64,000 nucleotides of DNA from Thermomicrobiales bacterium (GCA_023957015.1 JAMLHR010000001.1:28841-92840); one strand, 5' to 3'. Counted from the stretch's first letter, positions 3,672 through 44,199 are shown. Notes: generated by a model not told the origin, from the sequence alone. Numbers and translations: made by a program.

Positions 3672-3866
3672 TCCCTGGCATCATGAAATAGCGAAAATTA
3701 CTACTATCCATTCCACTCGCCCTATCCCAAGCTGAAATTGGCGACCACTCGTACCGGTTGCCTGGCTTGGCGTACGCCGACGATGATGTCCGGCACGTCT
3801 GTTCTAGCCGTTCTATCCGCCTGGGTAACAAACCGAGGAGTTGGCCCGCTCAGCAGGAGGGGTACC

Positions 3867-5174
3867 ATGTTCCGTAAGCTCTTCTCGATCGCATTCATCA
3901 TCGTGATCGTGTGCAATGGCCTCTACTCCACCAATCCGGCCATCGCCCAGGATGCGACTCCCGTAGTTGAGTCGAAAAACTCTACCGAGACACCGGTCCC
4001 CGCCGCTTCACCCGAGAATCTCGATACGCAATCCAAACCCGCCACATCCCAAACCCTCCGCAGTTTCGATGTCCAACCTCTGGATGCGGAGGTCATCAAC
4101 GTCACGCTCACCGCCAATGGAGAATCATCCAGCCTGACCGTCGATATCAACACCCCCATCAGCTTCGTGGCAACCGGTCCCTGGCAGTTTGACGATAGCA
4201 GCATGAACCTCTGGGTCTACTCCAATCCGGTCCCCGCAAACACTTGCTCCGGTGGCTCCGGCGTCAGTACCCAGGGCACACATCCAAACGGGAGCGGCAC
4301 ATCCTCCTACTCCTGGACTCCAACCGTTTCGGGTAGTTACTACGCCTATATCTATTGGTATCCCAATGGTGCGTCCGGCAGTATCTACTCCAACTGCGTC
4401 ACCATCACCGTCAAAGCGCCGGACGGGGCTGTCCATCTGACCATCAATGGCAGTGACGCGGATCGGGAGGTACCACTTGGTACATCACTCAACTTCGTCT
4501 TCACCGGCCCCTGGTCAGCAGGGAATCCAAATGTCGGCATCACCACTGTCTACGACTGCGGCCCTTCACAAGATGGAGACGGAAACCTCGGCGTCACAGT
4601 GAACGACGGCTCTGCTACCTACCAAGGCTTAATGGAGAACTGCACATACACGTTCTTCGGCACCATGCTGGTAAGTGGCGTCCTCTACAAATCCAATGAG
4701 ATAAGCCTCACGCCAGTCGCACCAACCCTCCATCTGACCGTCAATGACAGTGACGCGGATCGGGAGGTGCCACTTGGTACACCACTCAATATCGTCCTCA
4801 CCGGCCCCTGGTCGGCTGGAAATCCAAATGTCGGCATCACCACTGTCTACGACTGCGGCCCTTCACAAGATGGAGATGGAAACCTCAGCGTCATAGTCAA
4901 CGACGGTTCTGCTACCTACCAAGGCTCAATGGAGAACTGCACCTACACGTTCTTCGGCACCATGCTGGTAAGTGGCGTCCTCTACAAATCCAATGAGATT
5001 AGCCTCACACCAGTCGCACCAACCCTCCATCTGACCGTCAATGACAGTGACGCGGATCGGGAGGTGCCACTTGGTACACCACTCAATATCGTCCTCACCG
5101 GCCCCTGGTCGGCACAAATCAAAATGTCGGCATCACCACTGTCTACGACTGCGACACTTCTGAGATGGAGATGA
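3867..5174 (+). CDS. secreted repeat surface protein, N-terminal fragment (ends at in-frame TGA 5172-5174)
   Basis: AGGAGG at 3855-3860, 6 nt before ATG 3867. Signal peptide MFRKLFSIAFIIVIVCNGLYSTNPAIAQD. Contains 99-aa repeats with a TGPWS core. The same frame continues after the stop. Confidence 0.7.
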   Translation: MFRKLFSIAFIIVIVCNGLYSTNPAIAQDATPVVESKNSTETPVPAASPENLDTQSKPATSQTLRSFDVQPLDAEVINVTLTANGESSSLTVDINTPISFVATGPWQFDDSSMNLWVYSNPVPANTCSGGSGVSTQGTHPNGSGTSSYSWTPTVSGSYYAYIYWYPNGASGSIYSNCVTITVKAPDGAVHLTINGSDADREVPLGTSLNFVFTGPWSAGNPNVGITTVYDCGPSQDGDGNLGVTVNDGSATYQGLMENCTYTFFGTMLVSGVLYKSNEISLTPVAPTLHLTVNDSDADREVPLGTPLNIVLTGPWSAGNPNVGITTVYDCGPSQDGDGNLSVIVNDGSATYQGSMENCTYTFFGTMLVSGVLYKSNEISLTPVAPTLHLTVNDSDADREVPLGTPLNIVLTGPWSAQIKMSASPLSTTATLLRWR

Positions 5175-5324
5175 AACTACCTCAGCGTCATAGTCAACGA
5201 CGGTTCTGCTACCTACCAAGGCTCAATGGAGAACTGCACCTACACGTTCTTCGGCACCATGCTGGTAAGTGGCGTCCTCTACAAATCCAATGAGATTAGT
5301 CTCACGCCCGTTGCTCCAGACATC
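4434..5324 (+). repeat. 3 x 297-nt (99-aa) tandem coding repeat
   Basis: The CATCTGA landmark recurs at 4434, 4731 and 5028 (period 297). Copies 2 and 3 are near-identical except for the segment 5112-5178. Confidence 0.9.
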
Positions 5325-6719
5325 ACGCTCACCGCCAATGACTCAAACAGAGAGGCCACCGTCCAGATCAATGAACCCGTCAACTTCGTCACTACCGGCC
5401 CCTGGTCGGCAGGCGATACCACGCTCTTCTACACCATCCGTCTGTCCACCGACGAATCCTGTGGGGGTAACATCATCTTCGATCAAGCTCTCACGCCGAC
5501 CATTGCCGGTACGGCATCCTTCTCCTGGACGCCAACCACGCCAGGACTCTACCCCGTTCATGTCGGGTGGGTGTATGGCGGAAGCAACTACTCCTCACCC
5601 TGCGTCCTGGTGACGGTGACTGCTCCAGACATCACGCTCACCGCCAATGACTCAAACAGAGAGGCCACCGTCCAGATCAATGAACCCGTCAACTTCGTCA
5701 CTACCGGCCCCTGGTCGGCAGACGATACCACGCTCTTCTACACCATCCGTCTGTCCACCGACGAATCCTGTGGTGGCGAGGTCCTCCTGAAACAAGATCT
5801 CACACCAACCTCCGCCGGTACGGCATCCTTCTCCTGGACGCCAACCACGCCAGGACTCTACCCCGTTCATGTCGGGTGGGTGTATGGCGGAAGCAACTAC
5901 TCCTCACCCTGCGTCCTGGTGACGGTACTGGAGACAGCGACACCGACCGAAACGGCTACCCCGACCGAAACAGCCACACCGACGGAGACAGCAACACCAA
6001 CGGAGACGGCAACACCGACCGAAACAGCCACTCCGACGGAGACGGCTACCCCGACGGAAACAGCTACCCCGACCGAAACGGCTACCCCGACGGAGACGGC
6101 CACACCGACCGAAACGGCTACCCCGACGGAAACGGCTACACCGACCGAAACAGCCACTCCGACCGAAACGGCTACACCGACCGAAACAGCCACGCCGACA
6201 AGCGGAGCGGTCACCATTCTGATCAATATGTCGGACGGTAGCTCGCTAGAAGGCGCACCATGGGCGCTCTATGCGGAAACAGCCAGTATGCAGACTATGC
6301 CCGCCTACCGCACGGGAACGGTCGGTGCGAACAACACGATCGTGGTCGACGATATGCTGGATGGGGACTATCGCCTGGTCGTCTCACCGGAGAACATGGC
6401 ACCGATGTCGTTTACGTTCACCGTCGTCATTGGACCCGATGGCACAGCCTCTATCGTCCTGAATTTCGACGTGGTGACACCGACAGCTACGATCCCGGTC
6501 ACCGAAACACCGGTGACAGAAACACCAACTGGAACGACACCAGCGGCAACGGAAGACCCAGCGCAGGAAACACCCACATCTGCGACGGTCAACCTCCCCT
6601 CTGCCGGGTCTGGTGCGTACACAAGCTCTATGTGGCTGGGAAGCGCCACGGTCCTGGTACTGCTGACGATGCTGGTGGGAGCCTTCGTTGCTCGCATCAA
6701 TCATCGACGGCAATCATGA
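5226..6719 (+). CDS. repeat surface protein, C-terminal fragment with LPXTG-like sorting signal
   Basis: Same frame as 3867-5174. Repeat homology resumes right after the TGA at 5175 ([21 protein letters not shown]). Contains 2 x 103-aa repeats and 15 x ETATPT. C-terminus is LPSAG (6594-6608), a hydrophobic helix and a RINHRRQS tail. Confidence 0.7.
5313..5930 (+). repeat. 2 x 309-nt (103-aa) tandem coding repeat
   Basis: GCTCCAGACATCACGCTCACCGCCAATGAC occurs at 5313 and 5622. The encoded units [33 protein letters not shown]... are almost identical. Confidence 0.9.
5931..6200 (+). repeat. 15 x 18-nt in-frame tandem repeat encoding (ETATPT)15
   Basis: I counted 15 consecutive GAR-ACN-GCN-ACN-CCN-ACN units. 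The protein repeat is perfect while third codon positions vary. Confidence 0.95.
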
Positions 6720-6740
6720 CCAACATGAAGTCGTGAAAAT

Positions 6741-6776
6741 GTGTGACGATGGGCCAAGACAAGCCTATCGTCACAC
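6741..6776 (+). terminator. 10-bp-stem hairpin downstream of the surface-protein gene
   Basis: GTGTGACGAT (6741-6750) pairs with ATCGTCACAC (6767-6776). There is no clear T-tract, so terminator function is uncertain. Confidence 0.35.
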
Positions 6777-6860
6777 ACTCATGGCGTACGATCTCTCTCC
6801 CGATGTGTGTTTGCCCATACAATATCCTCATGACGGATCGATACACATCAGGAGGTCACC

Positions 6861-7967
6861 ATGGCGTGCCGCGATTGGGTTGTTGGTGCTATCAAAAAGA
6901 TCGAAGCGGATATCGCGCGGTCCGCGGATACGCACCTCATCCCCTGCAACGCACCGGGATTGCCCGGCATCACGATTTACCTTAAGGATGAAACGACGCA
7001 TCTGACCGGATCGCTCAAGCATCGGTTGGCGAGATCGCTCTTCCTCTATGGTCTCGCCTCCGGCTACATCCACGAAGGCACCACGATCGTCGAGGCGTCC
7101 AGCGGTAGCACGGCGATCTCCGAGGCGTATTTCGCCCAACTGATCGGCGTGCCGTTCATCGCGGTCGTTCCCGCCAGCACCTCGAAAGCCAAGATCGATG
7201 CGATCGCCTTCTATGGTGGGAGTTGTCACTTCGTCGAGAATCCGGCGGATGTCTACGATGCCGCTCACAGGTTGACGCATCGCACCAACGGCTACTACAT
7301 GGACCAGTTCACCAACGCCGGTGTGGCCACTGATTGGCGCGGCAATAACAATATCGCCGAGAGCATTTTCCGCCAGATGGAACATGAGGAGTATCCGGAG
7401 CCACGCTGGATCGTGGTCGGTGCGGGTACCGGCGGTACCAGCGCGACGATCGGTCGCTATCTCCGCTACCACGGTGCCTGCACCAGCCTCTGTGTGGTAG
7501 ATCCGGAGCGATCCGTCTTCTACGATGCCTTTATCGGCCAGAAGGTCGATCCCTGTTGCGATGAATGCCCGGATACGGTCGTTGAGGGTATTGGGCGACC
7601 ACGGGTCGAACCATCCTTCGTGCCGGAGGTTGTGGATCGCATGATCCGCGTGCCGAACGCCGCCAGTTATGCTGCCAGTCATTTCCTGGAGAAGATCAGC
7701 GGGCGTCGGTATGGCGGCAGCACTGGCACCAATCTGTATGGTGTGATGCAGTTGGCCACCGAGATGAAGGCACGCGGCGAATCGGGATCGATCGTAACGC
7801 TCGCCTGCGATAGCGGCAGTCGGTATGAGGATTCGGTGTACAACCCGCATTGGCTGAGCAGCAAGCATGTCAATGTGGTGCCGTATCTGGAGCAGATTCA
7901 GACCGCCTACGAGACCGGCGAGTGGATTCAGGTTGCGACCTGCGGTGTGGCGAGGGTGATGGGGTAG
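6861..7967 (+). CDS. PLP-dependent (fold type II) cysteine synthase-family protein
   Basis: AGGAGG at 6851-6856 precedes ATG 6861. PLP-lysine context [10 protein letters not shown]. Glycine loop [12 protein letters not shown]. Overall CysK/CBS-like organisation. Confidence 0.75.
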
Positions 7968-8014
7968 TTCAATCAAACTTCCATCGTCACTCGGCGTGGG
8001 TTGCATTGGTCAAC

Positions 8015-17132: not shown

Positions 17133-18577
17133 CTATCGCGTAAACAAGGCATCCTGTTGGGCACGCTTCCCGTTGACCCAGCCAGTTTCCGATGCGAGCA
17201 CGCCGCGCAACTCCTCGCGGGCGGCATTGACCCGGTTCGGGGCAGTACCACCTGGAAGATCGCGGAGTTCGGTGCTCCCCAAACCATCCAACGGTGGTCG
17301 CTGGGTGGTGAAGACGGGATGAATCGCGGCCCACTCCTCGTCGGTCAGATCAGCGAAGGTCTTGCCCACACGGATACAGGTGCCAACCAGCGCACCAACG
17401 ATCTCGTGCGCTTCGCGGAACGGCACACCAGCCTTGGCCAGGACATCGGCGGCATCGGTGGCGAGCGTGAAGTCCTTGATCGATGCCTCGGCGGTGCGAT
17501 CGCCGTGCACGGTGATACTGGCGATCATCGGTGGGAAGACATCGAGCACAGCGAGAATAGTATCGAAGCTGTCGATCAGCCCCTCCTTATCCTCCTGGCT
17601 GTCCTTGTTGTAGGTCATCGGCTGGCCCTTCATCGTCACCAGCAGACCGATGAGATTGCCGAACCCGACCACTCTTACCCGACCGAGGCTCCGCGATATC
17701 GGCGTTCTTCTTCTGCGGCATGATGCTGCTACCGGTGCTGAAGCGATCGGCGATGGTGATATATCCGAACTCGCCCGAGCTCCAGTAGACCATCTCCTCG
17801 CTCAACCGACTGATGTGCATGGCAATCAGCGAGCAGGCGTAGAGGGCATCGAGGGCAAAATCGCGATCGCCGACCGCATCCATGGAGTTACGACTGATGC
17901 GGCTGAAACCAAGTTCGGCTGCGACCGCCTCGCGATCGAGTGGATACGTCGCGCCAGCCAGGGCAGCACTACCGAGCGCGAGCACATCGGCGCGGTCGTA
18001 TGCCTGACGGACACGCTCAAGATCGCGCAGGAACATCTCACAGTAGGCATGCATGTGGTGGGCAAAGAGCACCGGCTGCGCTCGCTGGACATGGGTGTAG
18101 CCGGGCATGACGCTTATCGGCGTATTTGGTCGAAATCTCGAGCAAGGCATTGATCAGATCGGTGAGACCGCTGGCAACCTCGATCAACTGCCGCTTTGTC
18201 CAGAAACGGAAGTCGTTCGCCACTTGATCGTTGCGGGAGCGACCGGTGTGCAAACGACCAGCTGTCGCGCCAATTAGCTCACGCAGCCGACGCTCGACAC
18301 CGGTGTGGACATCCTCATCGGCGATGGTGAGCGCGAACTCACCCAATTCAACCTCACCCAGGATTGTCCAAAGACCATCGATGATGGTCTCGGCATCGCT
18401 CTGGGCAATCACACCCTGTTTGCCCAGCATGCGCGCGTGAGCGATCGATCCCCGAATATCCTCCCGCACCATACGGACATCGAACCCGACGGAGGCATTG
18501 AACGCCTCCAGCCGCGCATCCGGATTCTCCGCGAATCGTCCACCCCACGCCTTGCGTGTGCCTGATTGTTCTGCCAT
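17133..18577 (-). pseudogene. argH: argininosuccinate lyase, disrupted by two frameshifts
   Basis: Three consecutive minus-strand ORFs cover one ArgH. N-terminal part: WGGRFAENPD...TGRSRNDQVAN. Middle part: [12 protein letters not shown]...[12 protein letters not shown]-terminal part: [27 protein letters not shown].... Frame changes fall near 18108-18116 and 17661-17668. Confidence 0.85.
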
Positions 18578-18600
18578 GTCCATCCCCACGCGACCTATCG

Positions 18601-18684
18601 ATGGTAGAAGGGCAGGTAACCTGCCCCTCAATCACCTACGAAGGGGAGACTAGCTCCCCGACTACCGGTGCCGGTATAGGCACC
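18601..18684. repeat. REPIN-like doublet of inverted GGTAG-hairpin modules plus a third hairpin
   Basis: GGTAGAAGGGCAGGTAACCTGCCC on the plus strand. On the minus strand, GGTAGTCGGGGAGCTAGTCTCCCC (18643-18668). Then GGTGCCGGTATAGGCACC. Homologous to 39526-39590. Confidence 0.7.
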
Positions 18685-18749
18685 CAAATCTATCGGATAG
18701 CGTATCCCATTTCGAACGAGAGGCAGAGCATTCCACTATACTTGGTTGT

Positions 18750-18763
18750 CGAACACGTGTTCT
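18750..18763. promoter_or_regulatory. LexA (SOS) box, Cheo type: CGAACACGTGTTCT
   Basis: Perfect 12-bp palindrome GAACACGTGTTC (GAAC-N4-GTTC). It lies 8 nt downstream of a TATACT -10-like hexamer (18737-18742) and 18 nt upstream of the nurA start. Confidence 0.6.
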
Positions 18764-18780
18764 GAAAGGATGCTTCGTCG

Positions 18781-19833
18781 TTGATTGAAACCGCTCCCCG
18801 CTTCGAACCACTCGCTAGCCGCGTGCAGCGGATCGAGGATGCGCTGCGACGATCCGGCGTGCAACCAATCGATATGCGCAGATCAGGTACGCTGGAGACG
18901 GATATCGCACTACCGGAGTTCGGTCGTAATGAACCGCTCGAATCGCCGACGCTGGAATTCCTGGAGGGAACGCTCGATCACATCGAGGCTCGTCCAATTA
19001 CACGGGCGAACACCACGGCGTTCCGTTGGTTCATTGACGGTAGTCAGAAGACGATGCCGATCTGGCGAGTGGGCGTGGTCCCGATTGTTGTCAGTATCGC
19101 CGTCGCCGGTTTACTGGAACGCAATGATGAGGGCGAATGTAGGTTGGTACCGGGTTCGCTGCGGGAATCGTTGACCTGGATCGTACCTCAGCAAACAGGA
19201 AATCCGGAATTGCGCGCAATCGTGGATATCCTGGAGGCATACAATCAGCAAGTAGTTGATCCGCTTGAAGACCAACCGGATTACCAGCGATTGGCGGGTA
19301 TGTACGATTACGTACTCTACTACGCCAGCGAAACCGCTGGTAGTCAGCGACAGAAAGCCGAGTACGCGATCGCCCAGGCATGGGATGAGGAACACCAACA
19401 CGACCGTTCCGATGGATGGTTGGTTGTCGACGGTCGCTTACCAGTTGATGCCGATCACGCTGTTGGACTCATAAAGAGTCCGGAGGGACAGCACCTCGCT
19501 GGTCGCGATGCGATCACGCTGCTCAATCTTCCTGCCGGACAGAGGACAACGGCCTATCGCATCGCCAGTCGTGCCAGTGCTCGCACGCATTTCTACCAAC
19601 GCATGTGGCCAGCGGAGGGGCTGGACGCCCGCCGTGCACTGATCCGGATCGAATTGAGCGGCACCGATCGCGACACCGACGAGTTCAACGATATCGCGAC
19701 CTGGCTGATGGCCGAGCGTGTCCCCACACCTCGATCGGATAGTCGCTGGCCAACACTGCTGTATCCCGTGCATTTGCTGGAACGCATGCTGAAACAACGC
19801 CTCAATCAGATCACCGCCGGCTGGCCGGTATAG
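18781..19833 (+). CDS. nurA: NurA-like 5'-3' nuclease
   Basis: FRWFIDGSQK and WLVVDGRLP resemble the two DG(S/x)L-type catalytic Asp motifs of NurA. Genomic context with herA supports the call. It has a TTG start, so the exact start is uncertain. Confidence 0.6.
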   Translation: MIETAPRFEPLASRVQRIEDALRRSGVQPIDMRRSGTLETDIALPEFGRNEPLESPTLEFLEGTLDHIEARPITRANTTAFRWFIDGSQKTMPIWRVGVVPIVVSIAVAGLLERNDEGECRLVPGSLRESLTWIVPQQTGNPELRAIVDILEAYNQQVVDPLEDQPDYQRLAGMYDYVLYYASETAGSQRQKAEYAIAQAWDEEHQHDRSDGWLVVDGRLPVDADHAVGLIKSPEGQHLAGRDAITLLNLPAGQRTTAYRIASRASARTHFYQRMWPAEGLDARRALIRIELSGTDRDTDEFNDIATWLMAERVPTPRSDSRWPTLLYPVHLLERMLKQRLNQITAGWPV

Positions 19834-19916
19834 GATTTTTTCACGTGCAGCATTAATCGTATCTGGCTAGGAGTTGTTCATGTCCGTCATTGATCGTATC
19901 GGGGTAGGAGTAGTTC

Positions 19917-22013
19917 ATGCCCGTCATTGATCGCATCTGGGAGCTTCCAGAGTTCACCGATCTGGTCGACCACCATCAAGATGTCATCGGTCGCGTGGTG
20001 AGCAGCGAAAAGGAACCGGCCGGGAGCCATCAGTTCCACTTTTGGGGGGCCGATGATGCGCTGGCATTGGATATCGGCCATATCGTCGTCACCTTCAGCG
20101 AAGAGGCCGCGGTGATCGGTGTGGTCGATGAGCCGCGCCGCTTCAGCGATATGCACAGCTTCCTGGACGATTATTTCGACCGCCGGATGGAGATCGCGCT
20201 GCCGGAGGATGGCCCCACCCAGCGGCCGGAAATCCTGGTCTTTACCGTCAATGTGCTCGCCACCAAGCATCTGCGCAGGGATGTGCAGAGCAATCGTCCG
20301 GCGATCAATGGACCTGTTTACTTCGCGACCGAGGCTGCGATCAACTACGCGCTCGGTGTCGAGCACTTCGATGGCAGTCCGATCCCGGCACTGATGCACA
20401 CCAATGGAAACTACGTGCGCGACGCTGAGGGGAACATCCTTCTCGACGTGAATGGGCACAAAAAATTCCAGAAGACACCACTGTATCTGGACGAGAACTA
20501 TCTCCTCGGTCCGGAGGCAGGTCACGCCAACTGGACCGGCCAGAGCGGTCTGGCCACAAAAACCAGCCACGCGCTGTTCCTGACCAGCAGCATCTTCCAA
20601 ACGCTGCAGCGTTCCGACACGAGCGTGGCCGCCCTAATGTTCAACGTGAAAGGGCCGGATCTGCTCTGGCTGGACAAGCCAGCCGTGCCTGTACCCGGCA
20701 TGGAAGCGCTCTACGATAGCGCCGGTGCCCGGGGACTGGACGATGATCAGTTGAATGCCTACACATCGCTGAGGCTGGAGCCGACACCGTTCGACAACTT
20801 CAATATCTTTGCGCCGTTCAAGCCAGGTCAGGAGCCACAGAGCTACAGTGGCAAGGTTGATCTGGCGGGATTCTCCGACCAACAGATGCTGAACACGCAC
20901 CGCAATATGTCGGGGCAGAATGATCGCGTCTTCCCGATCCTGTGGTCGCTGGATCGGCTGCTCGCCTATCCGCATCGCATCTTTGATCACAACGATCTGG
21001 ACGACAAACTCTTCGGCTTCATCTACGAGTTGCGCGAGATGGGGATCAAGAGCATCGATCAACTCAACAAGCAGTTCGAGAAGATCAACCAGTACTTCGA
21101 AACACCGGACGAGAACGGTCGCACCAGCGACACCTGGAACGGACATCACAAGGCGACGATCCGCAAGGCACAGAATCGATTCAAGGGTCTGCAGGACAAG
21201 TTCGCTGGTTTGATCGCGAACGGCGCGGTCGATTACGGCACGACACCGATGGTGGACTATGCGTTCACTCCACAAGAGTTACGTGTTGTCGATATCAGTG
21301 CCTGCAATACCAATGTGCAAGAGCTCATCGTCACCTCCACCATCAACGCGATCTGGAGGTTGGCGGAGAAGTCCGACATGGGTGTGGATAAACTCATCGT
21401 CTTCGTCGATGAGTTGAACAAGTACGCTCCCGCTGGTGGCGAGGGCGGTCTGCGCGATACGTTGGTCGATATCGCCGCCCGCGGTCGGCACCTGAACGTC
21501 GTGCTCCTGGGGGCGCAGCAGTTCCGCAGCAAGGTCGACGGCGAGATTCTCGGCAACTGCGGCACCAGCTTCTATGGTCGTATCGGCGATGAGGAGATCA
21601 TCAACGCCGCCTATCGCAGCATTTCCGAGACGCAGAAGCAGGAACTACTGGGACTCAGCAAGGGGCGAATGCTGGTACGGCACGCGCATTATCGCTCGCC
21701 GTTGTTCGGCACCTTCCCCTACCCGCCTTCCATCCCGGGCATCTTCGGCCAGCGTGTGTTTGGCGGCGAAGATGGTCCGGCCGGTGATCCAGTCGACGGC
21801 TTAATGGCCCTTCTGGACAAGTACATGGGCGACAATGCCCCCCGTAAGGGAGAGGTCCAGGCACATGCCGACGGACTGGATCGTGAAGACATAGAGCGGG
21901 TACGAAGCAAACTATCCAACGTACTCAATGGCAACACCAACCGACGCAGCAACCCGTGGGAGATGATGAAACGAGAGTTGGCAAACAGTAAGGAAGCGAA
22001 GCGGTTCACATGA
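19917..22013 (+). CDS. herA: HerA-like (FtsK/HerA superfamily) hexameric ATPase/translocase
   Basis: N-terminal barrel-like region (HQFHFWGADDALALDIGHIVVTF). Walker B KLIVFVDELNKYAP. HerA-typical AARGRHLNVVLLGAQQFRSKVDGEILGNCGTSFYGRIGDEE. The Walker A is atypical (TGQSGLATKTS). Confidence 0.7.
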   Translation: MPVIDRIWELPEFTDLVDHHQDVIGRVVSSEKEPAGSHQFHFWGADDALALDIGHIVVTFSEEAAVIGVVDEPRRFSDMHSFLDDYFDRRMEIALPEDGPTQRPEILVFTVNVLATKHLRRDVQSNRPAINGPVYFATEAAINYALGVEHFDGSPIPALMHTNGNYVRDAEGNILLDVNGHKKFQKTPLYLDENYLLGPEAGHANWTGQSGLATKTSHALFLTSSIFQTLQRSDTSVAALMFNVKGPDLLWLDKPAVPVPGMEALYDSAGARGLDDDQLNAYTSLRLEPTPFDNFNIFAPFKPGQEPQSYSGKVDLAGFSDQQMLNTHRNMSGQNDRVFPILWSLDRLLAYPHRIFDHNDLDDKLFGFIYELREMGIKSIDQLNKQFEKINQYFETPDENGRTSDTWNGHHKATIRKAQNRFKGLQDKFAGLIANGAVDYGTTPMVDYAFTPQELRVVDISACNTNVQELIVTSTINAIWRLAEKSDMGVDKLIVFVDELNKYAPAGGEGGLRDTLVDIAARGRHLNVVLLGAQQFRSKVDGEILGNCGTSFYGRIGDEEIINAAYRSISETQKQELLGLSKGRMLVRHAHYRSPLFGTFPYPPSIPGIFGQRVFGGEDGPAGDPVDGLMALLDKYMGDNAPRKGEVQAHADGLDREDIERVRSKLSNVLNGNTNRRSNPWEMMKRELANSKEAKRFT

Positions 22014-23248
22014 GTCGACCGATCCGTATCGCCCATATCACCGATACCCACCTCGGCTATCGGACGCTGAACAAGCCCGATCCTGCGAGCGGTCGCAATC
22101 AGCGCACCGTCGATTTCGAGCGCGCATTCGAGTGGGCTGTCAATGACATCATTGAGCAGGAGAAAAAACCGGATGCGGTCATTCACGCCGGCGATGTCTT
22201 CCACCACGCCCGTCCGACCTGGCAATCGATGCGGCATTTCATCCAGCAATGGCAGAAGATCGAGCGAGCCGGTATTCCATCGTTGGTGATCGCTGGGAAC
22301 CACGATACCCCGAGAGTACGCACAGGCGGCAGCGCGTATTCGATCCTGGAACTTGTGCTGCCAAACACAACGTTCTACGCCGGTTACGAAGACAAGCACG
22401 ATCACGAAACGTTTCAGCATTTGGGTATTCACGTTCATGCGGTGCCGCACGGCGCACTAACCAGCGATAATCCGGTTGTTCCACAGGTGTTCGCCAACCG
22501 AATCAATGTGATGGTGATCCACGGTATGGTGAAGGGCATTCTCAAGCCCGGTCAACATGCCGAACCTGGTGAAGAGGAGCTTGATACCAGTCTCCTGGAC
22601 CACGGTTTCGATTACATCGCACTCGGCCACTATCACCAGCGAATGCAACCACCGGGTATCGGCAACGGTTGGTATGCCGGAAGCACTGAACGCAATGGCT
22701 GGGGCGACTACGAGACACAACCGGGCTACCTGATGGTGACACTCAACGGACCTGGCGAGGGTTTCGACGAGCCAGAAGTTCACAAGATTCCGGAAGATAT
22801 CGTGCGTCCGATGATTGATCTGAAAGCGACGCATGCAGAGAACATGCGCGGTCCGGAGATCGCAGAGGAAGTACTGCGCAAGATCAACAGCCTGAAAGAG
22901 AACGAGGAGACGCGACAGCGCGCCATGGTTCGGGCTCGCATCTGGGATGCGGAACGCGGCGATCGCCGCGAGGCGGAGTCGATTCTCAAACGTGAGGCAG
23001 CTGATCTCGTCTGGCACTTGAGCGTACCAACGGAAGCATCAGGCAATGCGAATACCGGTGAGCGACCAGAGGTCGCGCAAGAGTTCCCGGACATCCGCGA
23101 ACTCTTCGGGCAGTTCGTGGAAAGTCGCACCGGTATCGCCTTCAATGATCGCTTCGCCCAGATTTTCCGCGAGCGGGGTGATGCCACATTGGCCGAAGCT
23201 ATCGCGGCGGCAGTAACGGTCGCGCCGGAGGAGGATGAACTCACATGA
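22010..23248 (+). CDS. mre11: Mre11/SbcD-family metallophosphoesterase nuclease
   Basis: Phosphoesterase motifs IAHITDTHLG, HAGDVFH, VIAGNHD, VMVIHGMV and ALGHYHQ. ATGA overlap with herA. Confidence 0.85.
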   Translation: MSRPIRIAHITDTHLGYRTLNKPDPASGRNQRTVDFERAFEWAVNDIIEQEKKPDAVIHAGDVFHHARPTWQSMRHFIQQWQKIERAGIPSLVIAGNHDTPRVRTGGSAYSILELVLPNTTFYAGYEDKHDHETFQHLGIHVHAVPHGALTSDNPVVPQVFANRINVMVIHGMVKGILKPGQHAEPGEEELDTSLLDHGFDYIALGHYHQRMQPPGIGNGWYAGSTERNGWGDYETQPGYLMVTLNGPGEGFDEPEVHKIPEDIVRPMIDLKATHAENMRGPEIAEEVLRKINSLKENEETRQRAMVRARIWDAERGDRREAESILKREAADLVWHLSVPTEASGNANTGERPEVAQEFPDIRELFGQFVESRTGIAFNDRFAQIFRERGDATLAEAIAAAVTVAPEEDELT

Positions 23249-26049
23249 TCCTCTCTCGCGTGCATATCACCAACTACAAGCAATACGGTGGCAACCAGAC
23301 GATCGAGATTCCGCAGGCGGGAACAGTCGGTGTGATCGGCACTAACGGCGTCGGCAAGACGACGCTGTTCGAGGCGATCGAATGGGCGCTCTACTCGCCC
23401 TCTACAATCAAGGCCGCGGATGTGCGACCGCGCACCTGGCGAGGGAACACCCTGGTCGTGGTTGAACTGGATGATCCGGCCACGGGTCAGCAGTACGTCG
23501 TCGAACGCGAACTCGGCAAGGGGTCAGCCAAGGCACGTATCTATCGTCGCGATGCCAACGGATACGAAGAGAAGATCGTCGATGGCGCTGCCCAGGTCAC
23601 GCAATACGTCGCGAATACGCTGATCGGGCTGGAACATTCTGCCTTTGTCGCGACGTTCTTCACACGACAGAAAGAGCTTGGATTCTTCAACGGCTCCCCG
23701 ACCGCGCGGCGGCGAGAAGTCGGCAAATTGCTCGGTCTGGAGATCATTCGCGATGCGCAAGAGCGCATCGCCGAGGTGCGAAAGCGTGCCCAGGCGGACG
23801 CTCGCAGCTATCTGAGCATGAGCGAAGAACAGGCAAAGGAACGCGATTTCGCAGCCGAGCTTGTTAGTGCCGACGGAGCGATCGCTATCGCTCAGCGCGA
23901 GGTTGCGGAGGCGCAGGGAGCCCTCGAGATCGCACATCAGCAGGTTGCGGCGGCGCAGATGCAGCTGGCAGCGATCGAGAAACTGCGCGACGATGATGCC
24001 TCGTTGAATGAGCAGATCCTACAGAAACAACGCGAGCACGATCTGGCGCAACAGCAGATGATGTCGGCAACCCAGGAACTGGAACGCCTGGAAGCACTAG
24101 AAAGGGAGCGAATCGACCTGCTGCCAATCGCGTCACAAGTCGAGGAGCTGACCGAAAAAGAGACGGCACACAGCGAGCGACGACAACGAGCACTCCGCAG
24201 ACGCGAGTTGGCGCAAGCGCTATCAGCGATTGATCTTCGCGAGCAAGGTATACAAGCAGCGATCGAGCAAGCGATCACAGACACGCCGCCACCCGATCAC
24301 AATCCCCTATGGTCCACCACCGATGTCACGCAGGCGGTAGCCTGGGCCGAGAGAATTCGCCTGGATGAGATCGAGGCCCGAACAGAGGCGATTCAGCACG
24401 CGAAAGCCGTGAGCGACAACCTCGATCAGGAGCAGAAGCGGTTAGCCAGGTTCCTGGATCGTGTCGCCGTACTCCAGAGACAGATGAGCGATGCAACCGC
24501 TGATGGCGATCCGGCAATCAGGATCACGGCAATCGACGCACGGTTACAGCAAGTTCAAGGGAGCTCGGCGGCCGTAGAAACGACCAGGAAACGGCTCCAG
24601 ACTGAACTTCAGAAGAACGAGCGTATTCTCTCCAATCTTGAGCATCAGCACGAGGGCGAAGTCTGCCCGACCTGTCACCGGCCATTCACTGCAGATGACG
24701 CGGCACACGTCACCGAGGTCTTCCGGAAGGAGATCGCCAGCTTGCGGGATCAGTTGCTCGCGGTGCACCAGCAGATCACCGCGAACGACGAACAACTACG
24801 TGCGCTTCAACCGGAGCGGCAACGACTCATCGAGACGAGCAAGGTACTCGATGGTGTGCGGTCATCATTGGCGACCGGGCAACAATATGTCGCCGATCAA
24901 CAGGCGGCCGTGCAGCAGCTAACCGAGCAACTCTCCGCCGCAGTCGTCACAGCTGGGTTGTCCGGTCCACCAACAGCGGAGGATATCGACGTCGCCAGGG
25001 AGCAACTTAAGAAGTGGCAGCAAATCGTCAACGCACTGAAGGTCATCAAGCGTGCCTTGGCCGAACTCCCAAGATTGGCGGCGGAACGGGTGCCCGTAAC
25101 GGAGGAAGTAGCAGCGCTCGGTGAGGTTGTCTACGACGAGGCGGCTCATCGCACGGTGATTGAGCAGTTGAACCAGGCGCGGCAGGCACAGATCACGGCA
25201 CTACGCATTGATGGCGAGCTCTCGCGGAAAGCGACGGTCGAGCAGTCGAAGGAGACTGCCGCGCGTATCCTGGGGGGAGCGCGGCAGACGATGGCCACGC
25301 TACAGGACCAACGATCACGGCTCGGATTCGATCCGACCACGCTGCTCACGGCTCAGAACGAACACAATCGCGCACTCGAGCACGAACGGACCGCCACGCA
25401 GCATCACTTCCGCCAACAGACGCAACTCCGTGACGCCGAAACGGCGAGAACCCGGATTACTGACGATCGGAAGCGGCTGGAGCAGCTCACGCGAACTGCC
25501 GAGATCAAACGTCGCGAGGCCGATGATCTGGATCTGATGTACAAGGAGTTCAGTGAGTTCGAGCGGTATGCCGCCGCCTGGTATGCGCCGCGGCTGGGCG
25601 AGATCACCAGCGATCTGGTGGCACAGGTGACGGATGGCAAGTACGACCGGGTCGATTTCGATAACAACTTCTCGATCCAGGTCTACGATCGCGATGATGA
25701 GAAGTACCCCTATGAGACCTTCTCCGGTGGCGAACGTGACGCGATCGCGCTCTGCGCGCGCATCGCGCTGAGCCGACTCATCGGCGGTGCCAGCGCCAAT
25801 CCACCGGGCTTCCTGGTGCTGGATGAAGTCTTCGGATCGCTCGATCTGGAGCGACGACAGCGGTTGCTAGAGATGTTAGGCATGATCACCCATGCCGACC
25901 ACCAGTTCCAGCAGGTGTTCATCATTAGCCACGTGGATGACATCCGCACCTCACCAATCCTGGACGAGATCTGGCAGGTGAAGGAGACGGGGGATGGCAT
26001 CAGCCAGATTGAAGTTGTCGGTGCTGGCACGGATATTGGAGAGATATGA
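23245..26049 (+). CDS. rad50: Rad50/SbcC-family SMC-like ATPase with zinc hook
   Basis: Walker A GTNGVGKTTLFEAIEWALY. Long coiled coil with a central CPTCHRPF hook. Signature FSGGERDAIALCARIAL and Walker B FLVLDEVFGSLD. ATGA overlap with mre11. Confidence 0.85.
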   Translation: MILSRVHITNYKQYGGNQTIEIPQAGTVGVIGTNGVGKTTLFEAIEWALYSPSTIKAADVRPRTWRGNTLVVVELDDPATGQQYVVERELGKGSAKARIYRRDANGYEEKIVDGAAQVTQYVANTLIGLEHSAFVATFFTRQKELGFFNGSPTARRREVGKLLGLEIIRDAQERIAEVRKRAQADARSYLSMSEEQAKERDFAAELVSADGAIAIAQREVAEAQGALEIAHQQVAAAQMQLAAIEKLRDDDASLNEQILQKQREHDLAQQQMMSATQELERLEALERERIDLLPIASQVEELTEKETAHSERRQRALRRRELAQALSAIDLREQGIQAAIEQAITDTPPPDHNPLWSTTDVTQAVAWAERIRLDEIEARTEAIQHAKAVSDNLDQEQKRLARFLDRVAVLQRQMSDATADGDPAIRITAIDARLQQVQGSSAAVETTRKRLQTELQKNERILSNLEHQHEGEVCPTCHRPFTADDAAHVTEVFRKEIASLRDQLLAVHQQITANDEQLRALQPERQRLIETSKVLDGVRSSLATGQQYVADQQAAVQQLTEQLSAAVVTAGLSGPPTAEDIDVAREQLKKWQQIVNALKVIKRALAELPRLAAERVPVTEEVAALGEVVYDEAAHRTVIEQLNQARQAQITALRIDGELSRKATVEQSKETAARILGGARQTMATLQDQRSRLGFDPTTLLTAQNEHNRALEHERTATQHHFRQQTQLRDAETARTRITDDRKRLEQLTRTAEIKRREADDLDLMYKEFSEFERYAAAWYAPRLGEITSDLVAQVTDGKYDRVDFDNNFSIQVYDRDDEKYPYETFSGGERDAIALCARIALSRLIGGASANPPGFLVLDEVFGSLDLERRQRLLEMLGMITHADHQFQQVFIISHVDDIRTSPILDEIWQVKETGDGISQIEVVGAGTDIGEI

Positions 26050-26129: not shown

Positions 26130-26283
26130 TGATGGCCGATCGGCTTCATCGGTAGCGTCACCCCTTGTGGGTGACAACGACCATCTTCCGCCTTCGGAAG
26201 TCACCGCACATAAAGTGCGGTGGTACCGCCAACACCGCCTGCCTCGGGGATAAGGGCCTACGGCCACCTATGGTACCCCGAGG
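26130..26283. repeat. array of five consecutive GC-rich hairpins, including a GGTAG/GGTAC-hairpin doublet
   Basis: Hairpins: GATGGCCGATCGGCTTCATC; GGTAGC-GTCACCC-CTTGT-GGGTGAC; CTTCCG-CCTT-CGGAAG; CACCGCAC-ATAAA-GTGCGGTG-GTACC; GCCTCGGGG...CCCCGAGGC. Confidence 0.65.
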
Positions 26284-26310
26284 CTACGCCGACAAACATG
26301 GACTGAGTCT

Positions 26311-29978: not shown

Positions 29979-32261
29979 TCACTCAGCCTCGGGGGTAGCA
30001 TCTCCATTGCCGAGCGCTGGCAACGTGTAGTTTGCACTCCACACAGCATCTCCATTAATCAGATAGAGTCGCCCCGTATCCTCATCGACCACGATATCCT
30101 GGAGACCGGCAAACGGAGCGAGGTTATCTGCGCCATCGACCATGAAGTCGATCGGAAGCATGAGTATGACGGCGTTTTCGCCCTGTTTGTCGATCGCGAT
30201 CACGCGGCCATTCCCCTCGGCATCGACCACGGCCACATAGAGATAGCCCGTGGCGGCGCCGTTAACGATGGCAACCGGCGTATCACTTTCGTAGTCAAAT
30301 CCAGGAAGATCGAAGCGCCCCGTTTCCAGGCCTCCGCGCAACGTCACCACCTGACCATCCTCCAGCAGGACATAGATATTGCCGTCGATCGCCATATCGA
30401 CGGCAATGTTCAGATTGATGCGATCGCCCACCGAAACCCAGTCAGATGGTCCAACGGTCTGTTGGTTGGGATCGAGCGTGAACTCATAGATATTCCGGTA
30501 CGTGTTCACGAGCATGTACATGCTCTCGCCAAACGTATCGATTGGAGAAGCGGTCCAGGGTCCCTGACTGTTGATGGTATCGAGGGTCATCGATTGCCAG
30601 ACCGCGCCATCGGTGCTGCTGGCGAAGAAAGCGGCTCGTCCATCGGTCACCACGAGATAGGTGCCATCGTAGGAAACACCAAAGAGATTACCAACCCGAA
30701 TCCCCTCGATCTCGCGTCCCTGCTCCAGCATCATCTGCATCTGCGCTGTCTCAGGATTGAGGCGATAGAGATTCCCGTTGGCCAGGAAAATACCGCCAGC
30801 AGTCCAATAGGCGGATGTCCGACCATTACTCAGTTCATCGGGCAGACTTCCGATCCGACGCACACCACTGAGACGATAGACACCCAACACCTCATCGCGC
30901 TTCGCGGTAATCGCATTCTGGCGATCATGCACCTCCGAATCCGGTGCACCGAGCCGGTCGGCCCGCTCCAGGTCACTCTGGGCGGCATCCAGCTCCGTCA
31001 GGATCGCCGCCGGATCGTCCTGCGTCTCGGTAACATGCAATCGTTGATCAACTTGCGCCAATACGGGTGCATAGACCGACTCATCGGGCAGAAAGATATC
31101 CCGTTGACTCCAGATCAGCATACCGATGAGAAACACCGCCACCATCATGATGCCGATAAAGATCGGACTGGAGATAAGCGGAGCCCGGGGCAATCCAGAT
31201 CTCCAGGCGCTGGTATCTCCCATGCTCGTGATACGGCGATGTCGCCGCACACCGTGCGTACCCGGTGCTCCGAATTGCGCCTCCGGGCGGCGCGGTTGCC
31301 AGGTGCCGCCACCCTCTGTGGGTCGGCCCTCGGTGATGCGAATGAGTCGTTTCTGCAACGATATCCGCGGCACTGCAGGCGCGGGGGCGGTGATCTCCTC
31401 TTCCTCAACGGGAGCTGGAACAGACTGGCGCTGCGGCAAAGTGGGGGTGATGGCGCGGACGGCCGCCCGCATGTGTCGCAGCTGTTCCCGGGCGCTACGC
31501 CCCACGTCGGCGAGCGTCTCGATCTCCGACGCTACAGGATTCGGTGGGAACGAGATGACCGCGACAGCGGCAAAGCGCTCACCGGCGTCCAACGCCGCGG
31601 TACGAACATCGTCCAGCACGTCCTCGGGATCACGGGCAAAGTACCGGCGAAGCTCGAGTGGTTGCCCTGTGTCACCATGAGCCAAGGCCGATGCTGTGGC
31701 TGTATTGCAAAGCAAAAGGGTATCGCCGGGAAGAAGTTCGGTCTGGACCAGCACTGGCGCAACCCATGAGGAGAACCCCAAAGGTTCCGCTGGGGGACCA
31801 TCGGCATCCGCATTGGCCCAACGTGGCAGGTGCGAATCGAGATCGGGCACGCTGTAGACCAGATGATCCTGGACCAGGATCAGTTGTCCTGGCGGGAGGT
31901 GACCGATGGTCGCCACCGAATCCTCGAAGATGATCGCCGTCAAACCAATGAGCGCTGGTGGACCGATCGTACTCCGACCATCGTCACAGACAAGAGCGTT
32001 GGCGATACCAAACGCGTGTACCAACGCGGCATCCGGTGCCTGGCGCGCATGGAGTCGGAGCTGACCCAACACGACATCGCGCACCTGCTGCGCCAGTTCG
32101 CGGGAACGGCCATCGTCGCTAAGTGGCTCAACCAATACTGCCAACCCACGCCGATGCACGGACGGCGCGCCGACGATATCGACCGCAATCCATTCCCGGA
32201 CATCTGTTGGTTCGCCACCAGCGACAGCAGCAGCGACAGCGATTGGCTGCGGAAGCGCCAT
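29979..32261 (-). CDS. membrane protein with a PP2C-like (apparently degenerate) cytoplasmic domain, one TM helix and a beta-propeller-like ectodomain
   Basis: N-terminal region GLTAIIFED...PGDTLLLCNTA resembles PPM phosphatases. TM helix LISSPIFIGIMMVAVFLIGMLIW. The C-terminal ~370 aa is rich in repeated G-x-Y/L-Y-V patterns. Confidence 0.45.
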   Translation of the reverse strand: MALPQPIAVAAAVAGGEPTDVREWIAVDIVGAPSVHRRGLAVLVEPLSDDGRSRELAQQVRDVVLGQLRLHARQAPDAALVHAFGIANALVCDDGRSTIGPPALIGLTAIIFEDSVATIGHLPPGQLILVQDHLVYSVPDLDSHLPRWANADADGPPAEPLGFSSWVAPVLVQTELLPGDTLLLCNTATASALAHGDTGQPLELRRYFARDPEDVLDDVRTAALDAGERFAAVAVISFPPNPVASEIETLADVGRSAREQLRHMRAAVRAITPTLPQRQSVPAPVEEEEITAPAPAVPRISLQKRLIRITEGRPTEGGGTWQPRRPEAQFGAPGTHGVRRHRRITSMGDTSAWRSGLPRAPLISSPIFIGIMMVAVFLIGMLIWSQRDIFLPDESVYAPVLAQVDQRLHVTETQDDPAAILTELDAAQSDLERADRLGAPDSEVHDRQNAITAKRDEVLGVYRLSGVRRIGSLPDELSNGRTSAYWTAGGIFLANGNLYRLNPETAQMQMMLEQGREIEGIRVGNLFGVSYDGTYLVVTDGRAAFFASSTDGAVWQSMTLDTINSQGPWTASPIDTFGESMYMLVNTYRNIYEFTLDPNQQTVGPSDWVSVGDRINLNIAVDMAIDGNIYVLLEDGQVVTLRGGLETGRFDLPGFDYESDTPVAIVNGAATGYLYVAVVDAEGNGRVIAIDKQGENAVILMLPIDFMVDGADNLAPFAGLQDIVVDEDTGRLYLINGDAVWSANYTLPALGNGDATPEAE

Positions 32262-37131: not shown

Positions 37132-37224
37132 ATGCGGAATCGATATCGCATCAGGCGTATCGCATTCCACACTGGATCCGGATCACCGTTGAACGTCACC
37201 AACCCATCATTGTCAGCATCCTCC

Positions 37225-39518
<2,294 letters not shown>

Positions 39519-43428: not shown

Positions 43429-44199
43429 ATGACCCGCATCATCGCGTTCTTCAACCAAAAAGGCGGTACTGCCAAAACCACCAGCACACTCAATGTGGCG
43501 GCTGCGCTGGCTGAACGCGGCCGACGAGTACTGACGATTGATCTCGATCCGCAGGCCAGCCTCAGTATGGCCATCGGCACCGATGTCGCCCACCTTGACC
43601 TCTCCGTGTACGACCTGCTGCTGGACGAAGAGGTAACCATCGCCGATGTGGTGCAACCAACGACAATCGCCGGGATCGATATCGTGCCCTCGCATCCGGA
43701 TCTCGCAGCCGCCGAACTGGAGCTGCTGAACGTCCTCGAGCGCGAGCGCCAGCTGGATCATCGACTCAAATCAGCGGATCTGACCACATATGACTATGTC
43801 CTGATCGATTCGCCGCCCGCGCTCAATATCATCAGCATCAATATCCTGGTGGCGATCCACGAACTCGTGATTCCGATCGAGCCGCATCCGCTCTCGCTGA
43901 TGGTGCTGAAGCGACTCTTCGAGACGATCAATCGCATCAGCCGCCTGAATCCCGATCTGCGCGTGCTCGGCTTCCTGCCAACGAAGGTTCACCACAGCTC
44001 CCGGCTCGCACAGGATATGCTGGTCCAGTTGGAGGAGCAGTTCCCGCAACTACCGCTCCTGCCGAGTATCCCGCTCAGCGTGCGTGGGGCGGAAAGCACA
44101 GCCGAACGCACGAGCGTGCTGCAATACATGCCGAGATCGAACGTCGCCGCCGCCTATCGCGATGTCGGTGCCTGGCTGGAAGGGAGCGACCATGAGTGA
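43429..44199 (+). CDS. parA: ParA-family partition ATPase (second copy in window)
   Basis: MTRIIAFFNQKGGTAKTTSTLNVAAALA, TIDLDPQAS, LIDSPPALN. Overlaps parB by 8 nt. Confidence 0.85.
   Translation: MTRIIAFFNQKGGTAKTTSTLNVAAALAERGRRVLTIDLDPQASLSMAIGTDVAHLDLSVYDLLLDEEVTIADVVQPTTIAGIDIVPSHPDLAAAELELLNVLERERQLDHRLKSADLTTYDYVLIDSPPALNIISINILVAIHELVIPIEPHPLSLMVLKRLFETINRISRLNPDLRVLGFLPTKVHHSSRLAQDMLVQLEEQFPQLPLLPSIPLSVRGAESTAERTSVLQYMPRSNVAAAYRDVGAWLEGSDHE

Follow-up and report, generated by a model that had tools for sequence, protein, structure and literature searches.

In thermophilic archaea (Sulfolobus, Pyrococcus and Thermococcus) the NurA nuclease, the HerA translocase and the Mre11-Rad50 pair are encoded together in one operon, the gene order being herA-mre11-rad50-nurA; Mre11 is a Mn-dependent phosphoesterase and Rad50 an ATP-binding cassette (ABC) ATPase with a zinc-hook coiled coil. 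The Sulfolobus operon has been described as UV-induced (PMC5448004), and a physical interaction of Sulfolobus Mre11 with HerA has been reported (PMC2288612). In Deinococcus radiodurans the HerA hexamer is stable and feeds duplex DNA into a NurA dimer, the 5' strand being cleaved at intervals of about six bases as translocation proceeds (PMC9960219). In Oceanithermus profundus sbcD-sbcC lie directly downstream of nurA-hepA (Blesa et al. 2017, PMC5448004), and the Staphylococcus aureus sbcDC operon is LexA-regulated via CGAACAAATGTTCT (PMC11442139). Here we describe a 64-kb stretch of DNA (GCA_023957015.1 JAMLHR010000001.1:28841-92840; the window) from a metagenome-assembled genome (MAG) of the order Thermomicrobiales, phylum Chloroflexota, in which the four genes nurA, herA, mre11 and rad50 stand in one operon, whose conserved LexA-type box points to an SOS-induced machine for processing the ends of double-strand breaks (DSBs). 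The host of the operon is a soil-type bacterium of this order; an NCBI MAG labelled Thermomicrobiales bacterium holds a 100%-identical HerA, and the close homologues are all from Thermomicrobiales/Chloroflexota.

Layout of the operon and identity of its products

The four co-directional open reading frames (ORFs) proposed in the original prediction, which had been made from the sequence of the window, were all reproduced exactly by an ORF listing. Together with the predicted regulatory elements upstream of them, they are as follows:

18736-18741, + strand: -10-like hexamer TATACT, 9 nt upstream of the LexA-type box, predicted from the footprint only
18750-18764, + strand: putative LexA-type (Cheo-like) SOS box CGAACACGTGTTCTG, with the core GAAC-N4-GTTC at 18751-18762
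18781-19833, + strand: nurA, predicted bacterial-type NurA nuclease, 350 aa, TTG start
19917-22013, + strand: herA, predicted bacterial-type HerA hexameric double-stranded DNA translocase, 698 aa
22010-23248, + strand: mre11, predicted Mre11/SbcD nuclease, 412 aa, its start overlapping the herA stop (ATGA)
23245-26049, + strand: rad50, predicted Rad50/SbcC ABC ATPase with coiled coil and CPTC zinc hook, 934 aa, its start overlapping the mre11 stop (ATGA)

The ATGA reported at the herA/mre11 (cacATGAgtc) and mre11/rad50 (cacATGAtcc) junctions is present in both places, and these stop/start overlaps support an operon structure with translational coupling; a caveat concerns the nurA-herA junction, where the genes are spaced by 83 nt and do not overlap. 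The 4-bp overlaps recur in divergent relatives, and the G+C content (0.57-0.60) is uniform over the operon and its surroundings. Judged by conservation, the four ORFs are real genes and not chance ORFs, because each has many conserved homologues (216 were counted for the NurA-like and 2903 for the HerA-like protein) and the four-gene order recurs in related genomes. Every motif quoted in the original prediction was found in the translations, and the four gene identities are supported, with qualifications for the first two proteins that are given below.

The third protein contains all five phosphoesterase motifs of Mre11 (DTH, GDVFH, GNHD, VIHG and GHYH), with D12/H14, D62, N97/H98, H171 and H207/H209 invariant in 11 homologues, and matched the Pfam Metallophos model at 4.3e-14 (53.8 bits, cut-off 21.5). 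In the fourth protein, the CPTC zinc hook is present (Pfam Rad50_zn_hook, E 1.7e-6, 28.1 bits, cut-off 24.3) along with Walker A GTNGVGKTT, a Q-loop, the signature FSGGERD, Walker B LVLDEVF and the H-loop ISHV; SMC_N and SbcC_Walker_B were likewise matched above their cut-offs, AAA_23 was matched as well, and K38, Q142, C474/C477, SGGE 827-830, D860/E861 and H896 are invariant in 13 homologues. Among the NCBIfam models, those for archaeal Mre11 gave 1e-23 versus 1.3e-15 for SbcD, and PRK03918 matched Rad50 over its full length at 2e-46 versus 1.5e-19 for sbcc. All these matches, those to SbcD and sbcc included, stayed far short of the equivalog cut-offs; for the archaeal models (NF041029-31, PRK03918, NF041034-35) the best scores were 84 bits for Mre11 (cut-off 500) and 158 bits for Rad50 (cut-off 700). 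PDB searches gave one and the same ranking whether the query was a single sequence or a profile built from Thermomicrobiales homologues; for the Mre11 profile it was M. jannaschii (8e-29), T. maritima (8e-24), P. furiosus (1e-22) and E. coli SbcD (2e-12), and for the Rad50 profile M. jannaschii (3e-30), P. furiosus (1e-23), T. maritima (7e-16) and E. coli SbcC (1e-12). By these searches proteins 3 and 4 represent an intact pair of Mre11 and Rad50, to which the archaeal and Thermotoga complexes are closer than the SbcCD of E. coli.

The HerA-like protein carries the Walker A GQSGLATKTS, the Walker B VFVDELNKY and GAQQFRSKVDGEILGNCGTSFYGRI, all as reported; its scans against Pfam and NCBIfam were empty even at E = 10. 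A phmmer search retrieved D. radiodurans HerA (DrHerA; 7f6d_B, structures 7F6D/7WRW) at 1.6e-35. In the alignment of the two proteins the Walker A reads GQSGLATKTS versus GISGVATKTS, an acidic residue follows NVKG and the Walker B reads DELNKYAP, while K215/T216, D248 and D498/E499, which are invariant in 19 homologues, correspond to K175/T176, D220 and D487/E488 of DrHerA. All five of these DrHerA residues (K175, T176, D220, D487 and E488) have been shown to be functional (PMC9960219), and the features of a Deinococcus-type HerA (Walker A Lys/Thr, Walker B Asp-Glu and an acidic residue after strand beta2) are all found here. The AlphaFold2 (AF2) model is moderately confident (predicted local distance difference test score, pLDDT, 69) and served for fold ranking only; it has a beta-rich N-terminal domain at residues 25-192, and Foldseek ordered its matches as DrHerA (1e-20), then archaeal HerA (T. 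kodakarensis 1e-14, S. solfataricus 3e-12), then the HerAs of defence systems (1e-10 to 1e-8). A helical C-terminal extension (residues 626-697) that DrHerA lacks is conserved in the Thermomicrobiales HerA, and one may speculate that the C-terminal extension, of about 90 residues, is a docking site for Mre11. By its sequence and its modelled fold, protein 2 is a clear homologue of D. radiodurans HerA.

The NurA-like protein carries the reported FIDGSQ and VVDGRL, and it too left the Pfam and NCBIfam scans empty even at E = 10; as a single sequence it had no phmmer match in the PDB. A profile of 28 NurA-like homologues, on the other hand, retrieved D. radiodurans NurA (DrNurA; 7f6d_H) at 1.5e-6 and T. 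maritima TM1739 (1zup) at 0.037, and the AF2 model (pLDDT 86) had DrNurA (7f6d_G, 6.7e-11) as its best Foldseek match, followed by TM1739 (1zup, 1.9e-9) and then by PIWI/Argonaute RNase-H folds; archaeal NurA structures were absent from the Foldseek matches at E <= 1e-3. Residues D86, E194, D217, H331 and E334 are invariant among homologues and sit on RNase-H-like strands and helices, and the RNase-H-like fold with conserved acidic active-site residues that is typical of NurA is predicted here. A full-library search with the NurA profile recovered 903 representatives at 50% identity (384 of them at E <= 1e-10), among which second-tier relatives pass the PF09376 cut-off of 21 (P0290 with 25.0 bits, P0340 with 22.1 bits), and because these intermediate members reach the Pfam NurA cut-off, the homology is closed transitively. 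By profiles and predicted fold, protein 1 is a clear homologue of DrNurA. A weak profile match of its N-terminus to sigma-70 region 4 (E = 0.11) was judged to be due to chance.

The original prediction was to fall if the first two proteins did not match NurA/HerA profiles, and against Pfam and NCBIfam both literally fail; the homology is nevertheless established by phmmer, family profile, Foldseek and intermediate sequences, and we do not take the failure of the models as a refutation because PDB sequence, profile and fold searches agree on NurA/HerA. The designation archaeal-style, for its part, suits Mre11 and Rad50, which are most like the archaeal proteins, but not NurA and HerA, which belong to a bacterial (Deinococcus-type) clade, and the archaeal gene order also differs. 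By sequence affinity the make-up of the operon is mixed, with a bacterial-type NurA-HerA beside an archaeal/Thermotoga-like Mre11-Rad50.

The putative LexA-type operator and conservation of the locus

The palindrome CGAACACGTGTTCT ends 19 nt 5' of the nurA TTG, and when the sequences upstream of nurA from five genomes are aligned, CTATACT and the LexA-type box are invariant while the flanks diverge; a strict sigma-70 consensus scan of 18-27 kb reported no promoter. In 70 loci with enough upstream sequence the box was sought from -260 to +30 of nurA, and GAAC-N4-GTTC occurs exactly in 27 of them, versus 0.4 expected from its density elsewhere in those loci, and with at most one mismatch in 64, versus 9.1 expected. 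Dehalococcoides, also of the Chloroflexota, reportedly has a LexA that uses this same box, as Fernandez de Henestrosa et al. are said to have described in 2002. In B. subtilis and M. tuberculosis, the LexA box has the sequence GAAC-N4-GTTC (PMC3323433).

A perfect GAACATATGTTC was also detected in two Thermomicrobiales loci, at L045:3964 and L044:1287, between a divergent ftsK (23 nt from its start) and an impB/mucB-family gene (90 nt upstream of it). Y-family polymerase genes (impB/mucB, IMS family) are classical SOS targets, and to judge from its sequence and position the GAACATATGTTC site looks like a second SOS-type target in Thermomicrobiales. Another exact box in the window, at 60164, was rejected as an operator, as it lies inside/behind coding sequence and 0.84 boxes are expected per window by chance. 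The 64-kb window contains no lexA gene.

For a survey of synteny, 80 loci taken from the genomes of different Thermomicrobiales species were searched by tblastn with the proteins of the window. The order nurA-herA-mre11-rad50 is kept wherever the contig suffices, save in three 18-kb loci that are considered below, and adjacent co-oriented nurA then herA are kept in at least 70 loci. Across these loci conservation falls from HerA (52-82% identity) through Mre11 (36-73%) to NurA (29-75%); Rad50 has 32-62% in its full-length matches. The flanks are conserved as well, with argH upstream and, in many loci, a PIG-V-like glycosyltransferase and a thiamine pyrophosphate (TPP) enzyme downstream. In the window itself, branched-chain amino acid permeases, treZ and argH lie upstream of the operon, the glycosyltransferase and TPP enzyme genes lie downstream, and pyrF, an L,D-transpeptidase gene, parA, guaB, parB, a sigma factor gene, ABC transporters, proC, dtd and ispD are found at a greater distance; no phage, prophage, transposon or other defence genes appear in the gene content of the 64 kb, and Rfam and tRNA scans of the window gave nothing. 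The operon is therefore present order-wide with constant housekeeping neighbours, and the prophage or defence island that could have overturned the original prediction was not encountered in a window that is housekeeping throughout. Because the same order and the same housekeeping neighbours recur across species, comparison of these genomes indicates that this is a vertically inherited core operon and not a defence island or prophage.

Between nurA and herA there is one further feature:

19851-19940, + strand: 37-bp tandem repeat, 2.4 copies, 86% matches, which copies the Shine-Dalgarno sequence, the ATG and the first codons of herA

This repeat gives rise to an upstream ORF of 16 codons (19880-19930), which overlaps the start of herA. 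Relatives are without the repeat; there the stop of nurA and the GGAG of herA overlap, and HerA has about 10-17 additional N-terminal residues, which are poorly conserved. The repeat could be a genuine duplication at this site or an error of the assembly. At the other end of the operon, the 261-nt spacer 3' of rad50 holds two inverted repeats at 26200-26290 (GCGGTGGTACCGC; and CCTCGGGG ... CCCCGAGG, with a loop of about 30 nt), which could be terminators or a structured element; they had no Rfam match, and the terminator-like matches in a scan of 18-27 kb were not convincing.

Some further observations concern the neighbouring genes. The argH region (17133-18631, - strand), divergent from nurA, is split into three ORFs, which overlap and correspond to positions 2-143, 147-298 and 298-451 of TIGR00838, so that two frameshifts are implied, whereas the orthologue in another Thermomicrobiales locus (L008) is a single intact ORF of 490 aa; the broken argH is either a pseudogene or the result of assembly indel errors. 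Four large ORFs had no Pfam match at E <= 1e-5, namely 29979-32261 (- strand, 760 aa), 3738-5174 (+ strand, 478 aa), 5226-6719 (+ strand, 497 aa) and 6828-8006 (- strand, 392 aa), and the 760-aa ORF had no NCBIfam match either. The parA-like (37132-38025) and parB-like (44084-45196) genes are about 6 kb apart, with guaB and others between them, a placement which suggests that the origin region of the chromosome may be close to the window.

Proposed function and rival explanations

We consider it likely that the four genes are under LexA control and encode a two-module machine which processes double-strand DNA ends, and DSB end resection, the role put forward in the original prediction, stands as the leading function. 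According to this proposal, the operon would be switched on by DNA damage via LexA as part of the SOS response. By analogy with known Mre11-Rad50/SbcCD complexes, Mre11-Rad50 would, driven by ATP, recognise and tether DNA ends and clip blocked, hairpinned or protein-bound termini, and the HerA hexamer would thread duplex DNA through its HAS-barrel/RecA-like ring into the NurA dimer, which would digest the 5' strand in step with translocation, as in the D. radiodurans complex; the product would be a long 3' tail for RecA. The coupled translation of herA, mre11 and rad50 is an argument for stoichiometric co-assembly, and we propose that the two modules cooperate physically, that resection has this polarity and that it serves homologous recombination. 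A more far-reaching version is possible though doubtful: the operon would be the principal DSB resection pathway of Thermomicrobiales, replacing RecBCD/AddAB, with a bacterial-type NurA-HerA cooperating physically with the archaeal-like Mre11-Rad50, and at the same time the chromosomal, domesticated member of a large unannotated NurA-HerA-SbcD-SbcC family found also on plasmids of cyanobacteria, Chloroflexota and actinomycetes, where its members are possibly nucleases against foreign DNA. If true, the principal-pathway reading would give a bacterial model that clarifies the disputed role of NurA-HerA.

Relatives outside the order bear on this question. The tblastn search of HerA against plasmid and phage records yielded distant homologues (22-28% identity); the genome contig scan used Thermomicrobiales-specific peptide patterns and is blind to the wider bacterial distribution. 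A NurA-like/HerA/SbcD/SbcC module was found on plasmids of Candidatus Chlorohelix allophototropha, Sphaerospermopsis and Aulosira, and a Streptomyces linear plasmid has the order herA-sbcD-sbcC-nurA. In a Nonomuraea genome, herA is followed by mre11- and rad50-like sequence (by tblastn, NurA being outside what was examined). The flanking hypothetical proteins that were compared by profile, those on the Chlorohelix, Sphaerospermopsis and Streptomyces plasmids and in a Marinitoga virus, are NurA-like with a probability of 92-97%. The expectation that NurA-HerA is usually not joined in one operon with SbcCD does not hold, since the arrangement is order-wide in Thermomicrobiales, published for Oceanithermus and found on plasmids. 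The plasmid-borne modules were searched for GAAC-N4-GTTC and for cyanobacterial-type LexA boxes, and neither was found; the Nonomuraea copy has no GAAC-N4-GTTC box. The virus, Marinitoga camini virus 1 (4927-7635), is temperate and has a Thermotogota host; it carries nurA-herA without mre11-rad50, beside a LexA-like repressor gene.

Several points weigh against a damage-induced resection machine. We know of no experiment on this family in Chloroflexota. LexA binding, and with it the damage induction that we infer, is read from the motif itself. The HerA model is poor (pLDDT <50) at residues 532-622, and the position of the DNA-binding Arg495 of DrHerA is occupied by Ala506, an alanine throughout the Thermomicrobiales family. 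Three 18-kb loci (L043, L050 and L054) have nurA-herA with no mre11-rad50 downstream, herA being followed by unrelated genes (peptide ABC transporter, pyrroloquinoline quinone (PQQ) beta-propeller, LuxR-type regulator), and because nurA-herA stands alone there, its coupling to mre11-rad50 is not obligatory; L043 and L050 retain a one-mismatch box, and L054, labelled as chromosome 2 of its MAG, has no nurA box even with one mismatch. The distant plasmid modules adjoin defence-like genes, the neighbours being ImmA/IrrE peptidases (two modules), Wadjet-like TIGR02678/TIGR02680/DUF2397 genes (one) and TIR/kinase genes (one). Finally, in D. radiodurans and T. thermophilus the deletion of nurA/herA had mild or even paradoxical effects, the tolerance of damage being modest or improved, and the physiological role of bacterial NurA-HerA has been called controversial (PMC9960219).

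The operon could also serve an end other than the resection of DSBs. Its two modules could be co-transcribed but separate, Mre11-Rad50 being engaged in SbcCD-type cleavage of hairpins and blocked ends and NurA-HerA in something different, possibly antagonistic to repair, by competing with RecJ-RecQ or degrading damaged chromosomes, which has been suggested for Deinococcus. This would agree with the improved tolerance of mitomycin C and far-UV in the D. radiodurans nurA-herA deletion, for which competition with RecJ-RecQ was suggested (PMC9960219), with the occurrence of nurA-herA without mre11-rad50 in Deinococcus and Thermus as well as in the three loci just described, and with the nearest relatives of the two modules, which appear to differ (bacterial versus archaeal/Thermotoga). 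We nonetheless think it unlikely, as the 4-bp overlaps of herA, mre11 and rad50 are conserved over deep divergence, which speaks for stoichiometric co-production, the four-gene linkage has been retained or re-assembled in several phyla, and in Sulfolobus Mre11 interacts with HerA (PMC2288612). A machine for DNA transfer or uptake, that is, a transjugation-like DNA pump in place of a repair complex, is brought to mind by the membership of HerA in the FtsK/HerA pumping ATPases and by the effect of T. thermophilus hepA and a second NurA-like gene on transjugation (PMC5448004). It is highly improbable here, given that no conjugation, competence or membrane components are adjacent, that a Pfam scan found no membrane-associated domain in any of the four proteins, and that the LexA-type box and the Mre11-Rad50 linkage point to the processing of DNA ends.

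A role in anti-phage or anti-plasmid defence, an alternative raised together with the original prediction, would have Rad50-Mre11 sense foreign linear or unprotected ends and NurA-HerA destroy the DNA like a RecBCD without Chi. HerA-family ATPases do head defence systems, and SIR2-HerA and DUF4297-HerA were among the Foldseek matches (1e-10 to 1e-8), but the repair-type HerAs rank above them. In a search with PADLOC-DB v2, Rad50 matched LmuB at 1e-33 and HerA matched mad8 partially at 3.6e-7; these, however, are generic ABC/ASCE ATPase cross-matches, the HerA model itself giving only E = 0.017, and no system was called, NurA having no match and the Rad50 matches (LmuB, DndD, PbeC and others) no partner genes. 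The plasmid four-gene modules beside TIR/kinase, ImmA/IrrE and Wadjet-like genes and the nurA-herA of the Marinitoga virus also speak for defence, and a genome-guarding role has been raised for archaeal HerA-NurA (Blackwood et al., PMC3326311). The chromosomal locus, in contrast, is syntenic with its housekeeping flanks order-wide, unlike a variable island, in 64 kb without mobile-element, prophage or other defence genes, and its conserved LexA-type box fits damage induction. Defence is thus disfavoured by the conserved housekeeping position, the lack of a PADLOC system and the conserved box, and we hold it to be quite unlikely for the chromosomal operon, which it fits poorly, although the plasmid-borne cousins possibly have such a role.

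Significance and comparison with known systems

Systems of this kind are already known from the archaeal operon, the Deinococcus NurA-HerA and the Oceanithermus cluster, and it is the member in Chloroflexota that is new; what is noteworthy in it is the mixed make-up, the order-wide conservation and the conserved LexA-type operator. Bacterial NurA-HerA, so far a curiosity of Deinococcus-Thermus with an unclear role, is part of a core order-wide set in another phylum, coupled in translation to Mre11-Rad50 and preceded by a conserved SOS-type operator. This makes the strongest genomic case to date that the bacterial complex is induced by damage and carries out repair together with Mre11-Rad50, as its archaeal counterpart does. 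There is also an annotation gap, since the curated models miss the bacterial clade and proteins 1 and 2 are labelled 'hypothetical' or 'ATP-binding protein'. For the plasmid copies in three further lineages and for the Nonomuraea cluster one may ask if the module spreads horizontally and if its task in these settings is repair or defence. For settling the purpose of bacterial NurA-HerA the operon offers a cleaner system, which a specialist would find useful rather than surprising.

Among the known systems, those of SIR2-HerA/Nezha and DUF4297-HerA have in common with this locus the HerA fold (HAS barrel and ASCE ATPase ring), but here there is no SIR2 or DUF4297 effector, the partners are NurA and Mre11-Rad50, and the locus belongs to the core genome. 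The SbcCD of E. coli and S. aureus is the same pair of a nuclease and a zinc-hook ABC ATPase, and the S. aureus box is nearly identical to the one described here; the similarity to E. coli SbcCD is, however, far weaker than that to the archaeal proteins, and E. coli and S. aureus are without a NurA-HerA partner. Oceanithermus profundus (phylum Deinococcota), mentioned in passing in PMC5448004, has the same tandem order on a bacterial chromosome, the likeness being that of the published gene order.

For proteins 1 and 2 the best match in sequence and fold is the D. radiodurans NurA-HerA (DR_0836/DR_0837; PDB 7F6D, 7WRW and 7WRX). The unusual Walker A (G-x-S-G-x-A-T-K-T-S) is common to the Deinococcus/Thermus NurA-HerA/HepA and to the proteins described here, as are the Walker B DELNKYAP and an acidic residue behind NVKG, and the Deinococcus-type pair is likewise arranged as nurA then herA and likewise missed by the Pfam NurA/HerA models. 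Identity to D. radiodurans is about 22-24% for HerA and 16% for NurA; HerA is 80 residues longer here than DrHerA, and NurA has, compared with DrNurA, an extra N-terminal part of about 50-80 residues, in which a DMRRAG-like motif is invariant. The linkage to mre11-rad50 and the LexA-type box are further differences, the pair being without such an operon in Deinococcus and Thermus. With thermophilic archaea the Thermomicrobiales operon shares all four functions and, as proposed here, inducibility by damage, but its NurA and HerA are <20% identical to the archaeal proteins and fall outside the Pfam models built on these, nurA stands first, and its regulation would be through a bacterial LexA-type box, unlike that of the archaeal operon.

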